This document shows, piece by piece, positions 30,001 to 36,000 of a stretch of 55,996 bases of DNA (within the stretch, counting starts at the first letter, position 1; each line of letters begins with the position of its first letter). Source of the DNA: a virus (Duplodnaviria; Heunggongvirae; Uroviricota; Caudoviricetes); IMG/VR virus record IMGVR_UViG_2880361019_000001; one strand, written 5' to 3'. Made by a program: the position numbers.

Positions 30001-33000
30001 CACGTCCCGAATCGTCGCCTCCACGTGAGACTTCATAAAATCTTCAGCGGCAGAATCCGTGGGCTGAAAAAGCAGACTGTTTCGGGATTTATGCTCAATA
30101 AAATACCCGGCGACTCCCAGCAACATCTTTGTATAGCCAACACGGGCAGATTTAATCAGATTAACAGTGCGGATCTGATCATTCCCCATACTGTTCATGA
30201 TGGCGATCTGGAACGGCAGCGTTTTCCATTCGCCGTCACCGTATGAGGATTCTTTCGGCAGATAATAATACTGGTCAGCCCATTCAACTGCCGTCATCGG
30301 TACAACCCTGACCAGAGGCTGCAGCGCAACCGAAACGGCGGCCACCATATTATTCAGTTGTTGCTCTGATATATTCATCCAGCAAATCCGGTAATTTATC
30401 CCCTGCCCGCGCACACTGATTTGCGCCCTTTGCAATAAGGGTTTTCAGATGGTCAATATGACGTGGCGTTAAATCCGGGAACTGTCGCTGCATGGATAAC
30501 GGAATGGAATCAAGCGTACTGGACAATGCCATCGCCAGTTTGCTGAGGGCGAAAACGCAGAAGTCTGAATCGATGAGCTTACCTTCGGTTACCTGATTTT
30601 TAAGTTTTTGAGCTACAGCCTGTTCTTCTGTCAGTTCAGCTCTGGCCCGAAGCAGCCTTTCCTCCAGTTCTCCCCCGTTATCAGGTGTTCTCTGATTGTG
30701 TTGTCGCCGCTCGCGATCTATCTCCAGTACAGTTTTAACGTCATATAAAACTTCCCTCCCCCGACGTTCAACAGGAGGAACGCCCCATTTATCAAATGCC
30801 TGAACAGAGATACCGATGGAGGAGGCCATATCACTTTTATTCAATAAAAAGGCCATCTCCTCTCCATAAGTCATCGATAAAAAGCGAAACAACAACCATG
30901 TGTTTTTGCAAAACCATTTGATATCATTGACATTTTTCGCATTGACGACATCAAAACACATCGTAAGGTTGTTGTATTTATTTTATTTTCACCTTACTTA
31001 TCAATTAGATATACCAAACAATTAAACAACAACCACCCCCTCAAAAAATCTCATAAAATAGTGAAAACGCGCGAGGTCGCCGCCCCGTAACCGGTCGGAT
31101 CGCCGGAAAGGACCCACGAAATGATAATGATTATCATCTATATAAGGTTTATCACAACATGTGTGTACGCCATCAAACCACGAGAAATAATCAATTATGA
31201 CGCAGGTATCGTATTAATTGATCTGCGTCAAATTAACGTAAAAGCAACTTCAGATAATACAAATCAGCAACACTGAATATGGGGAAACATTATGTCATCA
31301 AAGAACAGAACCCGCAGAACAACAACCCGCAACATCCGATTTCCAAACCAGATGATTGAACAAATTAACATCGCTCTTGATCTGAAAGGTTCAGGAAACT
31401 TTTCAGCGTGGGTTATTGAAGCCTGCAGAAGAAGGCTGTCAACAGAGAGTTCGGGTATGAATTACATAATTAAGTAACATGGTGTTCACAGAACACGCAG
31501 TTACCGGACACATCAGTTTTCCATTCGCTCCCCGGCAGTACAGGCTTCCCCTCTGACGGGATAGCCTGAAAAAATAACACAGAAAATTATTTGTTATAAT
31601 TAATATAACTTACTCAAAAAAAAAGCGACGAGAAAATCAGCATCAACGAACAATAAGCGCCAATACGTGATAACAAATGGCAGCCATATTTATCTGCAGT
31701 ATAAGCAATGGACAGGATAACCACACCAGAAACCGTCAGCATAAAATCCATTTGAACTTCCCCGGACAAAATCGACTCATCTAAAGATTTACAGCTCTTT
31801 TTATTATCAATATGTTAAAAGTAAAATAAACAGATGTTCAATAACACGAATACAAAAACGTGCTGAAATTCAATGAATCCATTTCTGTGTCATCAATTAA
31901 TAGTGATAAACATCCGGCTTCTTCCACCATCGCACCGGACAGGCGACTATGAGGGGACAACGCCGCGCTCCGTTAACGCGGTAAACCCCGGTGTGTATCG
32001 TTTTTGATTATCCCCGCACACTCGCGCAGAAGAGTCTCCCTGTCGGGCTGCGGTCTCTGTTAATGCAGGAATACGGCGACAATACCGCGCATGGATAATA
32101 AGGTCGCTCAACACACTGGCTGTAATGCAGCGGATACCATGCGGCATTTAGCGGCATTCATCGTACACTCCACGGTTAGCTCTTCATTCGTGGCATTCAC
32201 CTGAAAGGTCCGGGAGTGTAATTGCGTACATTTACCACTGAACGAACCTTCAACAAGAACACGACCACGCTGCAAAATACGGAACGGAATTGTTCCCTGA
32301 AAAGGTTCTACAGTTACCCGTAATTTCTTCATGTATCCTCCGGATAATAAAAAGCCAGCTTAGTGCACTGAGTGCGGATATATTCCTGCGCCCCTTCCAG
32401 CTGCTTCTGCATTGTCATCAACCGTTCTCTGAGGATGAAATAATCCCGTTCAGCGGTGTCTGCCAGTCGGGGGCCGGTTGCATTATCCACGCTGGAGGTG
32501 CCGGTGGCTTCACGCACGGTACCGGGGCAGGTGGCGTTGACCCGCAGGCGCTTACGACCAGCGGCAACATCAGCGCGCAGAGTTTCAATTTCAGCTCTCG
32601 CATCGGCTAATTCCTTCGTGTATCTGGCATCAAGCGCAGCGACATCTCGCTGGCGCTGCTGCATGTCAGTAATAGTGGCATTCGCCAGTTTCAGCTCACT
32701 GACTTTTTTATCGCGCTGCGCTTTGTAGGTGATGGCGTTATCGCGGTAATGATTCAGCCCCAGACTAAGCACACCACAGGCTACCAGCAGGACAATAATC
32801 ACCACACACAGAACACGGTTCATATCACCACCAACGGATTACCCAGACCAGAACAGCAATGGCCACAATACGAATGGCAAATGCCATTGCCCGAATAAGT
32901 TCAGCACTCATCTTTTTAAAGTTCACGATTTCAGCGCAATGACCAGTTTTGCCAGCCCATACAGCATCGGAGACACAGCAATACCAACAGCCACCCACTT

Positions 33001-36000
33001 AATAGCAAAAGCCAGCGCTCTGCTGATGTCATCAGTCACTGTCACCCCAGCAGCCCCGACGAAGACAACATCACCCAGGCGAGGGACAGAAAAAGAGCAA
33101 CCAGCATTAGTGAAAATGAAATACCGACAATCACACACAGGACCTTTGCCGGCGTTATGAGTTTGTCTGACATAGCTACCCCTTAATTGCCACAATTAAC
33201 TGGGATACTACCCATAAAAAAGGGATGCTCCAGACCAGCAAAAATTTCCAGTTTGGTAATTGACTAATCATGAGTCGCAACTCCCTAATCAGTTTGCTAA
33301 AATCAATCAAGGCAGCCTCCCATAGCTTACTGCCATAAAAACAAAACCCCGCTTGCTGCCAACAAACGGGGTTTTTACTTTTATTCACTTACGTTTCGCC
33401 AGTTCGCAGGATTTCATGTTATCCGCCCGCGTGGCCATGCCTTATTTTTCAGCAAAATATTCTGCTTATCTGTCGATACCCCAGCACGCCAGCGCGCTCT
33501 CCTGGTCACGACGGGATACCTGACCGTAGCAGTTGTTTGAACGAATACGGCAATCTCTGCCACCGTCCTTAATCCACCAGCGAATCGCCTCACATGCTCC
33601 CCTGCGATCACCAGCATTAATTCGTTTATAAAACGTCGACGGGAAACACTTACCTGGGCCAATGTTGTAAGGACAGAATGACGCAATACCCGCTTTCTGG
33701 GGTTCAGTCAGTGGCACTTTGATGTTTTTCGCCACCCATGCCAGCGCCTTATCACGCTCAATGGCGTTAACCCGGTCGCATTTTTCCTTCGACAACTTCA
33801 TGCCCGGAACGACAGGTTTACCATCCACCAGGATGGCACCGCGGCAGATGGTCCAGATACCCGCACCATCACGGTATGCCGTGGTGTGGTTACCTTCCTT
33901 TTCATCCAGAAACTGGTCGAGAATGTCAGGCGCAGGCGCACCTGCGGCAATCAGCGCCAGAACGGCAGCCGACAGGCCGTATCTGATTTTTGCGTTCATG
34001 GATATTTATCAGGGTTTATCGATTTCAAATCCCTGGATATGTTAAGTCTTCAGGCCAGCGGTGGAGTCTTCAGAGAACCAGTAATTATTCCCGGTAGTTT
34101 TCCTCTGTAGGTTATCAACACATCCTGCGCCTCTAAAATTACGGGGCGCTTTTCCGGCAACGGACCATCCCCTTCACATAACCCGGCAGCAACATCCATG
34201 AAAAACTGCTTCGCCTGCTTTTTCGCCTCAGCTTCGTAAAACTCCAGCGTGGCACCTTCAGTACGGTCAAGACTAATCGCCACATCTGGCAACAACAGTG
34301 ACGGATACCCACCAATTTCCAGTGCCACAGTAACAGTAATCTTATCCGGGTAATTATTTATCCCTTTAACAACCAGTTCGTATTTTTTCTTCATCGCTTT
34401 ACTCTCCCCGCGCCGCCTTACGCTTATCTTCTTTAATCTTGAAATAAAGGTTAGTCAGATACGTCAGCAGGCCAAACAGCAGACTCCCCAGCACACCGAT
34501 TGCCACCCACTGGGACGGAGAGACTTTGTCCAGCAGCTGCAGTAACCAGTATCCCGTCCCCACCGCTGACGTGGTGTATGACACACCCGTTGTGATTTTT
34601 TCCATCTGATGTATGTCTCCGTCACCGCCGACAGAAAATGAAAGTAAAGAAAAACAAAAAAGCCGCCAGTGTCACCCACTGACGGCCAACGCCAGGAGCC
34701 GTGATTATGGCATTCAGGCTCTGCTAAAAATGCCAGATAACATTCCGACCCCCCTGATTCAGGTTATAAATGACACAATATCTTGACAACATCCGTCACT
34801 ATCTGTCAGAAAATGTACTGCCAGATATAAGTATCATGTGAAGTACATCTACCCGTTTTAGCCAGCGTCCTTCAGAGTGGGCGCTGGCTTTTTTTATTAT
34901 GCTGCGGGTGCATTTATCTCCAGCACCAGACTTTCTATCTCAACGCCATACGCTGCATTTTTTGTAACATCCGTCAGCGTCAGCGCATTCAGTCCCAGTG
35001 TCAGACTGTCTTTTATAACCTGGAATGCCGGGCCAGCCACTCCATTCAGTTTCGGAGTAACCGTGGCACTGCCGGCGGTGAACACCAGCTCCAGCGTCTG
35101 CCAGTCGTTACTGTAATCGCCGAACTCCCCCAGCTTCGTGTTTCCGGCTTTCCTGTGATGCATCAGATTCACTCTGCCGTCAGTGGTCTGAGTAAAGTAC
35201 GACATCAGGAACGGATTACCGGTACCCGTCATCGCCACATCATCAGGAACGGGAGCGTCCGTATACAGATAAATCCCCAGCCCGAACTGATTGTTGGTCA
35301 GTGCGCCTGACAGGCGGAACTTACAGGTCAGTCTGCCGCCCTGTGTCAGCAGGGTAATTGCGTCATCCACCGGATGCGTCAGGGACCAGGATTTATTGCT
35401 CTGCTTGGCGATCTTAAATACACCACCCGACAACTGAATTCCGCCATCCTTAATGCTCCAGCCCTGCGCAGCAGCCTCTCCGGCTGCCGGCAGCAGGGAG
35501 ATTGTGCGAACGGACGTATCTGCAGACGGACCCGATGGCGTGTTGCCGCCGGGCGAGGGTTTGATTTCCGGTGCCTTACCACTGATGAAGGCGGAGGTGC
35601 GCCCGGCTGCGTTCAGAATAGCGGTTGCCAGACGATCCGGAATAATGCTCCTGCGCGCCCATGAACTGAAATGTGTCGGGCGGTTTGATGATACCTGGTT
35701 TCCATTCGTTCTCGATGCCGCACCGTAATATCCTGATGCCGGAATATCCGGATCTTCTGCCGGCGCGTTAGTGGCGGTATTGACGCCGTTACCGTCTGTC
35801 ATGAAGGGCACAAAATAAACGCCCTCACTCTCCCTGTTTTTATACCCGCCGTACACGGTGTCGTACTGGGTAGCGTATGTATTTTTCCAGTAATACGTCG
35901 TGTCACCACAAATCCACGGCACATTTACAGCACTGCCACCATGACACTGCGCGTTAAACACAGTGAGGTCAGCACGAAACTGCTTCAGCATGGCTGTAAA

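Follow-up and report, generated by a model that had tools for sequence, protein, structure and literature searches.

What lies between the endolysin and spanin genes of this lambdoid lysis cassette, and what might it do? Such cassettes are regarded as a solved paradigm of four genes: holin, endolysin, Rz and Rz1. The stretch analysed here (the window; all 55,996 nucleotides of the IMG/VR virus record IMGVR_UViG_2880361019_000001, Caudoviricetes) comes from a lambdoid prophage of Escherichia coli, and in it an insert between the stop codon of the endolysin gene R (33466) and the ATG of the spanin gene Rz (32823) adds conserved microprotein genes to the middle of the cassette. The insert is a widespread but unstudied accessory module, distinct from the known classes against which it was tested. 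Based on the sequence comparisons set out below, we propose with moderate confidence that it is a mosaic accessory module of the late operon and, with low certainty, that its products, predicted microproteins of the inner membrane, modulate lysis.

The insert between R and Rz

A preliminary description of this DNA, made from the sequence alone, had placed a terminator and four tandem small open reading frames (ORFs) in the insert. All of the elements are present, on the minus strand, with the following extents.

33376–33465, minus strand: non-coding spacer downstream of R, with an invariant GGATAACA core
33333–33375, minus strand: intrinsic-terminator-like hairpin and T-tract (the hairpin itself at 33375–33343)
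33311–33332, minus strand: leader with a GGGAGG ribosome-binding site and a small stem, GGCAG...CTGCC, around it
33176–33310, minus strand: ORF1, 44 aa, (M)IDFSKLIRELRLMISQLPNWKFLLVWSIPFLWVVSQLIVAIKG, with a TTG start and the helix at the C-terminal end
33042–33173, minus strand: ORF2, 43 aa, MSDKLITPAKVLCVIVGISFSLMLVALFLSLAWVMLSSSGLLG, with the Shine–Dalgarno (SD) sequence AAGGGG 5 nt upstream
32923–33045, minus strand: ORF3, 40 aa from GTG 33045 or 38 aa from GTG 33039, an N-terminally short copy of the 60-aa ORF3L family
32825–32911, minus strand: ORF4, 28 aa, a short form of the ...IRWW subfamily, without a clear SD sequence

From R onwards, a 90-nt spacer is followed by the hairpin with its T-tract, the four adjoining small ORFs and then Rz. 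The gaps after ORF1 to ORF4 are 2, 2 (or a GTGA overlap), 11 and 1 nt, respectively, the last being the single nucleotide between the end of the ORF4 stop codon and the Rz ATG. The coordinates and lengths first given for ORF2 (33173–33042, 43 aa) and ORF4 (32911–32825, 28 aa) hold, and those for ORF1 and ORF3 are revised below. In the Qin prophage of E. coli K-12, rrrQ overlaps rzpQ with nothing between them. As the lysozyme gene there runs directly into the spanin gene, the segment in the window is a true insert relative to the plain R–Rz order, as had been supposed.

The 901 bp around the insert are 100% identical to the O55:H7 strain USDA5905, with an offset of about 100 nt between the window and that genome further upstream of the insert region. 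At least 80% of the 901-bp stretch was covered in 589 of the 5426 complete E. coli genomes (about a tenth), and the carriers include many relatives of Shiga toxin (Stx) phages. Annotation by the Prokaryotic Genome Annotation Pipeline (PGAP) includes ORF2, ORF3 and ORF4; ORF1 is missing from RefSeq, and ORF3 appears there with a CTG start further upstream, an unlikely start codon. Both entries are corrected here.

Each of the four ORFs encodes a hydrophobic helix, as first described, the best 19-residue window having a mean Kyte–Doolittle value of 1.9–2.9. All four matched profile families in PHROG, every one of them listed as 'unknown function', and searches of all ORFs and their full-length relatives against Pfam (E≤1), NCBIfam and PADLOC (E≤1) gave no match, in line with the initial view that no characterised family could be assigned. 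Rfam (E≤5) returned chance-level matches only over 31500–35000. Since each ORF matches its own family of free-standing small proteins, these are four separate genes rather than one frameshifted gene, and the reading frames are conserved in homologues, with substitution patterns that indicate purifying selection in the called frames.

P2 lysA sits in the same position between endolysin and spanin genes, and the insert might on that account be taken for the decayed remnant of one larger membrane-protein gene, of the LysA type for instance, broken by frameshifts. P2 LysA was rejected as a source because it has no sequence similarity to the region (best tblastn E=0.37 in the 901 bp; blastp E≥0.14 against each ORF). 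In other phages, moreover, each ORF exists independently as a small gene, complete with start codon and ribosome-binding site. There is no Pfam match either, and we consider a remnant extremely improbable.

ORF1 and ORF2

The 31-aa ORF1 initially proposed from ATG 33271 is too short, as the frame is open upstream and an in-frame TTG at 33310, 5 nt after GGGAGG, gives 44 aa. The N-terminal addition, IDFSKLIRELRLM, is kept in homologues of 44–45 aa whose GTG or ATG start codons fall at the equivalent position. Homologues of this length were found in E. coli, Salmonella (phages SPN3UB and SEN34), Citrobacter, Enterobacter, Klebsiella and Providencia, and the family comprises 16 clusters in six enterobacterial genera. 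The 31-aa form matched PHROG 6632 at 6e-5 in a profile search. Selection was assessed throughout from the ratio of the proportions of non-synonymous and synonymous differences (pN/pS), using Nei–Gojobori counts between the window copy and diverged copies in the called frame and in the other two frames. For the C-terminal half of ORF1, compared with an allele linked to Ant in Stx1a-type phages, pN/pS was 0.21–0.33, against about 0.7 up to 2 in the other frames.

ORF2 matched PHROG 4906 at 4.5e-21. Its relatives form 106 database clusters, all from E. coli, and among the GTDB species representatives it was found on a single 328-bp contig only. Most full-length relatives, down to about 65% identity, are 43 aa long, the few exceptions being due to an indel, another start site or a C-terminal frameshift. 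The pN/pS in the called frame was 0.3–0.6, including 0.33–0.41 for the comparison with a homologue of 65% identity from the unrelated cassette of contig L104. The alternative frames gave about 0.7 or more against L104, and one of them about 0.5–0.9 against the E. coli copies. Taken together, the PHROG matches, the pN/pS values and the fixed lengths make ORF1 and ORF2 well supported as genes. In the other E. coli architectures that have ORF2 directly before Rz, that of PhiR12_3 excepted, its stop codon overlaps a GTG, which is the Rz start called by PGAP in three E. coli genomes. The similarity between ORF2 and the Rz N-terminus at the DNA level was that expected by chance.

ORF3 and ORF4

ORF3 had been described as an ORF of 38 aa at about 33039–32923. 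It is present and that start is possible, but the GTG at 33045, which overlaps the ORF2 stop codon (GGGGTGA), is the likelier one; the same junction serves ORF2 to Rz in several other phages. ORF3 matched PHROG 1115 at 3e-24, and ORF4 matched PHROG 4493 (5e-6) and PHROG 3246 (1.5e-4). The core of ORF3, compared with E. coli and Salmonella relatives, gave a pN/pS of 0.05–0.18 (0.7 or higher in the other frames), and ORF4 gave 0.42 (about 0.7 or more).

ORF3 and ORF4 are paralogous, as suggested at the outset, since both match PHROG 4493 and PHROG 3246 at the same profile positions; their full-length relatives are 50% identical (BLASTP E=1e-14). The DNA similarity of about 70% reported for them was too high, the figure being 58% nucleotide identity over the alignable 66 nt. 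Duplication in place also fails as an explanation, as each is closest to a different full-length allele: ORF3 to a 60-aa gene of PhiR12-type phages (ORF3L), and ORF4 to a 50-aa ...IRWW gene (ORF4L) that stands alone before Rz in strain TUM3755 (L102). The different closest alleles and the low DNA identity indicate that the array is a recombinational mosaic of pre-existing alleles rather than the product of local tandem duplication.

Members of the superfamily are 48–60 aa long and have an N-terminal part KYKRILLRLTMKNGLExDAPxTxEIxxAxAFAI[KR], then a variable helix ending in ...ALKS or ...IRWW. The window ORF3 and ORF4 begin only at TDDIS... and MSAELIR..., respectively, and the KYKRILLRLTMKNGLExDAP part is absent from ORF3. 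By sequence, both ORFs belong to a well-supported family, of which they are short forms. Short forms are not unique to the array in the window, as a 38-aa gene in L104 shares the MSA[DE][FL]IRA start with ORF4. A search of 1.84 billion representatives with the ORF3/ORF4 family profile returned 23 clusters and no tie to a larger family, and an AlphaFold2 model of a 60-aa relative, two helices with a predicted local distance difference test score of 77, was uninformative. The idea that the IRWW end of ORF4 is a leftover of an ORF1-type gene was dropped, as the full-length 50-aa ...IRWW relative was found.

The truncation of ORF3 and ORF4 raises the alternative that they, and possibly the whole array, are recombination debris at a mosaic joint, whose frames have stayed open only because the array arose recently. 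Neither retains the N-terminal half seen in its full-length relatives, and the most conserved N-terminal motif of the superfamily is missing with it. Their ribosome-binding sites are weak, and both are lost in phage phiSTEC1589, where ORF3 is frameshifted and ORF4 mostly deleted. The array is also nearly clonal: across 22 distinct copies of the four-ORF block (about 450 bp), 9 sites vary, 4 with non-synonymous changes. What was retained is, however, the most constrained part of the family (the ORF3 core, above), and the short form with an ORF4-like start was called separately in L104. ORF1 and ORF2, for their part, are full length with good ribosome-binding sites. The frames are intact in 78–80 of the 80 IMG/VR copies, which is weak evidence because these copies are closely related. 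On balance, debris is an unlikely explanation.

Codon 24 of ORF4 (32842–32840) is a hotspot of change in otherwise identical cassettes, encoding Ala in 68 of 80 copies, Thr in 9 and Val in 1, with Ile also seen. At the 5′ end of ORF3L, a promoter-like site, TAGTCA-18-TATACT, occupies codons 3–12 in both E. coli and Salmonella (L005 1828–1799, L089 3537–3508), and the two genera do not differ by a single synonymous change over 51 nt of coding sequence at this site. A mini-ORF of 8 codons, M(C/G)REV(C/L)SL, with its own GGGAG site (L089 3470–3500, L102 1090–1120) has a stop codon overlapping the GTG of ORF3L or ORF4L (GTGA); it is missing from the E. coli PhiR12-type copy.

The hairpin, leader and spacer

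The hairpin has a 15-pair stem with six G–C pairs, followed by GTTTTTATGG. It is common to the E. coli and Salmonella copies, with two stem pairs altered on both sides, i.e. compensatory changes. It had been called a bidirectional terminator; on the gene strand, the only one scored, it is indeed terminator-like, and the A-run and T-run that flank it suggest bidirectionality. Every family member examined has such a GC-rich hairpin 20–60 nt upstream, preceded by an A-run and followed by a T-run, whatever its neighbours, and one Citrobacter copy has a hairpin on both sides. In all cassettes this distance between hairpin and start codon leaves no room for a promoter.

The fold predicted for the leader was barely better than those of shuffled sequences (z=−1.8). 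By eye, a stem of 4–5 bp with its 3′ arm abutting the ribosome-binding site was found between hairpin and start codon in 9 of 10 cassettes, but a leader hairpin that masks the SD sequence was not supported by a pair-count test or by folding z-scores (−2.3 to +0.5). Of the 43 sites that vary among 22 versions of the cassette, 23 fall in the spacer, which can be aligned with Salmonella spacers behind different endolysins. No conserved ORF, Rfam match or clear fold was found in it. It includes a palindrome with a compensatory change, CGTTGGCCAACG in E. coli and CGTGGCGCCACG in SPN3UB.

A hairpin in this position could also belong to a module like a type I toxin–antitoxin system, in which an antisense RNA running from within an ORF to a bidirectional hairpin would cover the ribosome-binding site of a hydrophobic toxin. 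The peptides are small and hydrophobic, A- and T-runs flank the hairpin on both sides, and promoter-like sites on the opposite strand face it, one being that in codons 3–12 of ORF3L and the other CTGACA-18-CACAAT with a TG at 33167–33196 (plus strand, antisense to ORF1), which on its own is at chance level. These promoter matches reach 9/12, no commoner than in shuffled sequence, and none was found in SPN3UB. The putative toxins would lack a promoter of their own and lie within what appears to be a translationally coupled operon, and neither an Rfam match nor a Pfam toxin family was found, all of which makes such a module very unlikely.

Arrangements in other lysis cassettes

The same slot is occupied by alternative alleles in other prophages. 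PhiR12-type phages and O157:H7 have the hairpin, the 60-aa ORF3L, ORF2 and Rz. Other arrangements are the hairpin, the 50-aa ORF4L and Rz, and the hairpin, ORF1, ORF2 and Rz. Stx1a phages have Ant, ORF1′, ORF2 and Rz, and in PhiR5_1 the order is Ant, ORF1′, ORF2, ORF3, ORF4 and Rz. In a further arrangement an M15 peptidase endolysin is followed by Ant-N, ORF2 and Rz. The alternative alleles share conserved left and right flanks.

One context, in E. coli, is an S21-type pinholin with a signal-anchor-release (SAR) lysozyme. In Salmonella, ORF3L or an ORF1-type gene stands alone between lysozyme and Rz, with holin_2_3 and two lysozyme types (including the SPN3UB context). In Enterobacter, where the holins are holin_8/holin_3_7, an ORF1-type gene is flanked by a GH19 endolysin on one side and a small pair of overlapping spanins on the other, and on contig L104 a GH108 endolysin is accompanied by an ORF3-type gene and then an ORF2-type gene. 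Most of the contexts found are thus endolysin/spanin junctions, across unrelated holins, endolysins and spanins.

On L104, the ORF2-type gene is followed by a 60-aa predicted lipoprotein (lipobox LVGC; 1860–2042) and no recognisable Rz, and the contig also has a 966-bp tandem repeat of the region, possibly an assembly artefact. SPN3UB (L098) contains an unannotated 36-aa hydrophobic ORF, MSKRDVSALCFLMAAAVAISGNDGWGWLIFAGIIIL, at 1696–1806, in overlap with the end of the endolysin gene; the 161-aa lysozyme product of L092 has a similar sequence as its C-terminus.

Expression and a possible role in lysis

No sigma-70-like promoter was found on the gene strand between 32300 and 34100. The Q-modified late polymerase of lambdoid late operons ignores terminators. 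The lack of a promoter from the hairpin to Rz, together with a Q-like gene upstream, suggests that the small ORFs would be transcribed only by a terminator-resistant late polymerase, along with S, R and Rz. The hairpin would silence them in the lysogen. The module would then consist of a terminator-like hairpin and, behind it, four genes without a promoter, whose products would be single-helix microproteins of the inner membrane belonging to three families specific to phages. Translation may be coupled along the chain into Rz, with the ORF1 stop codon 2 nt before the ORF2 ATG and the ORF2 stop codon overlapping a GTG. The products would insert into the inner membrane late in infection and might there modulate lysis through contacts with the membrane-spanning helices of pinholin, SAR endolysin or i-spanin, a step that we put forward with low certainty. 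The effect would be a shift in the timing or efficiency of lysis, not an essential lysis function. Modulation of lysis is the best guess because the endolysin/spanin slot prevails in lysis systems that are unrelated to one another and because ORF2 appears to be coupled to Rz.

Several observations weigh against this interpretation. Away from lysis cassettes, family members lie between baseplate genes (SEN34) or between tail genes I and J (Citrobacter), or follow the tail-fibre genes at the ends of Salmonella prophages, in some cases as tandem paralogues. On metagenome contig L106 there are two consecutive cassettes between two other phage genes, the downstream one portal-like (recognised by eye from its first 70 residues; Pfam gave no call for the flanking genes). 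A lysis-specific role is therefore not required. The loss of ORF3 and ORF4 in phiSTEC1589 and a nonsense codon in ORF1 of one O145:H28 prophage show that these genes are dispensable in nature. ORF3 and ORF4 have the truncation and weak ribosome-binding sites noted above, and the pN/pS of ORF2 is just moderately under 1. The four-ORF block is so nearly invariant that selection since the array was assembled is not measurable, a within-cassette ratio of non-synonymous to synonymous substitution rates being impossible to obtain. A search of the literature, full text and supplements included, found nothing on these small proteins.

The contexts outside lysis cassettes bring in the possibility of general late-operon cargo that gathers at permissive junctions and acts on host membrane proteins in a way unrelated to lysis, for example by blocking superinfection or by interfering with transport or defence. 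This would fit the positions of the ORF1 and ORF3/ORF4 families between baseplate and tail genes, among the phage genes of L106 and after tail-fibre genes, as well as the dispensability of the small ORFs in some prophages, and the alternative alleles with shared flanks resemble exchangeable specificity cassettes. Exclusion proteins normally work in the lysogen, however, and the missing promoter and the upstream terminator speak against expression there. PADLOC gave no match, and endolysin/spanin junctions of unrelated lysis systems make up most of the contexts found. Cargo of this kind is possible but doubtful.

A bolder form of the lysis-modulation proposal, which we think rather unlikely, is that the three families constitute a new class of exchangeable lysis modulators. 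These would be microprotein cassettes without a promoter, shielded by the terminator ahead of them and accessible to the antiterminated late polymerase only, and the encoded helices would pair with, or serve as decoys for, the transmembrane helices of the core lysis proteins. The ORF3 family could then, for example, be a mimic of the second transmembrane domain (TMD2) of the pinholin that tunes pinhole formation, and ORF2 could work together with the i-spanin, with which its translation is coupled. Recombination at the conserved flanks would let phages exchange their lysis-timing 'settings'.

If the small proteins do tune lysis, burst size would be affected and, in Stx phages, also the timing of toxin release. 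If their role is another, they would still be compact, abundant phage membrane microproteins of distinctive design, their genes lying behind a terminator, lacking a promoter and being coupled to the gene that follows.

The late operon of the prophage

The minus strand carries all late genes of the prophage. Those around the insert are as follows, in late-gene order.

39603–39064, minus strand: Q-like antiterminator gene, the first in the order
37134–37383, minus strand: three tRNA genes (Arg-TCT, Arg-TCG and Met/Ile-CAT), between the Q-like gene and the esterase gene
after the tRNA genes and before the holin gene, minus strand: SASA/NanS-type esterase gene
34605–34399, minus strand: S, an S21-type class II holin (the resident pinholin)
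34050–34394, minus strand: YdfR/DUF1327 gene, 114 aa (Pfam 1.7e-46, PHROG 406), between holin and endolysin
33999–33466, minus strand: R, SAR-type lysozyme/endolysin, 177 aa (PHROG 7, endolysin, 2.5e-61; annotated as lysozyme), the upstream border of the insert
32823–32329, minus strand: Rz i-spanin (PHROG 13 at 1.1e-77), the downstream border, its ATG preceded by GGTGGTGA
32418–32603, minus strand: Rz1 o-spanin, embedded in Rz (PHROG 3198 at 1.9e-30)
32108–32332, minus strand: 74-aa ORF overlapping the end of Rz (PHROG 2571, function not known)

The terminase genes come after Rz/Rz1. In Stx phages, the stx genes occupy the slot equivalent to the interval from the Q-like gene to the esterase gene, in which the tRNA genes lie here, and no stx is present there in the window prophage. 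The YdfR/DUF1327 gene is another conserved member of the lysis cassette without a known function. A relative of the 74-aa ORF was found downstream of the Rz region in the Salmonella prophage L089 (4604–4813). A hokD type I toxin gene is annotated in the early region of the near-identical prophage of USDA5905 (L107 26593–26748, corresponding roughly to 41500–41650 of the window) and is known from that reference only.

Comparison with known systems

Type I toxins (Hok, Ldr, Ibs and TisB) resemble the small ORFs in size, hydrophobicity and residence in prophages; the small ORFs differ in having no promoter of their own, no match to a toxin family in Pfam or NCBIfam and no antisense RNA family in Rfam. 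No PADLOC model of a known anti-phage defence system matched (E≤1), and LysZ of corynephages is unrelated. Like the lambdoid morons (bor and lom of lambda, and those of HK97), the insert is present or absent among close relatives at a precise junction and is mosaic. A classical moron comes with a promoter of its own, ends in a terminator and is expressed in the prophage state, whereas the insert has no sigma-70 promoter on the gene strand, its hairpin is upstream and ORF4 runs straight into Rz.

Of the lysis proteins, the spanins differ from the small ORFs, which have no sizeable soluble part and no [LVI][ASTVI][GAS]C lipobox and are followed by a genuine Rz/Rz1. XhlA of the Bacillus prophage PBSX, encoded beside holin and endolysin and auxiliary to lysis, has a short cytoplasmic N-terminal part and a C-terminal membrane helix; it belongs to a Gram-positive system, the small ORFs gave no Pfam XhlA match, and the two are alike by description only.

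The pinholin S21 and antiholin S21-71 of phage 21 are likewise small, helical and located in the inner membrane, and they too are encoded in the lysis cassette. At its start (KWVAVGVAVSPMLYGL), the helix of the ORF3 family is similar to TMD2 of the resident pinholin, at the DNA level too, but the hhalign probability was only 10%. The DNA similarity of ORF3 to S was equalled in 18 of 500 codon shuffles for the window copy and in 2 of 2000 for the PhiR12_1 copy, which is not significant after 16 comparisons. Apart from ORF3 against S, no DNA similarity of the small ORFs to S, YdfR, R or Rz stood out. The small ORFs are unlike holins in having one helix, C-terminal tails of 2–14 residues and a net charge of 0 to +1, whereas the resident S has the highly charged, basic tail typical of holins, and the predicted orientation of the long ORF3 form, with its basic N-terminus inside, is opposite to that of the pinholin TMD2. 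Searches for holin families gave no Pfam match (E≤1) for the small ORFs, and their PHROG matches fall outside the lysis category. A public 554-bp contig (P0120) encodes a predicted protein in which the N-terminal half of an S21-type holin is fused to the C-terminal half of ORF3 at a shared WVA[IV]G motif; it may be either a real recombinant or an assembly chimera.

The closest parallel in position is LysA of P2, which occupies the same slot between the endolysin K and the spanins LysB/LysC. The two are not homologous, LysA being one protein of 141 aa with several hydrophobic segments and the insert encoding four one-helix proteins of 28–44 aa. LysA is nevertheless membrane-embedded and dispensable, with an effect on lysis timing annotated in its record, and, though no homologue, it provides a functional precedent for the modulation of lysis from this slot.

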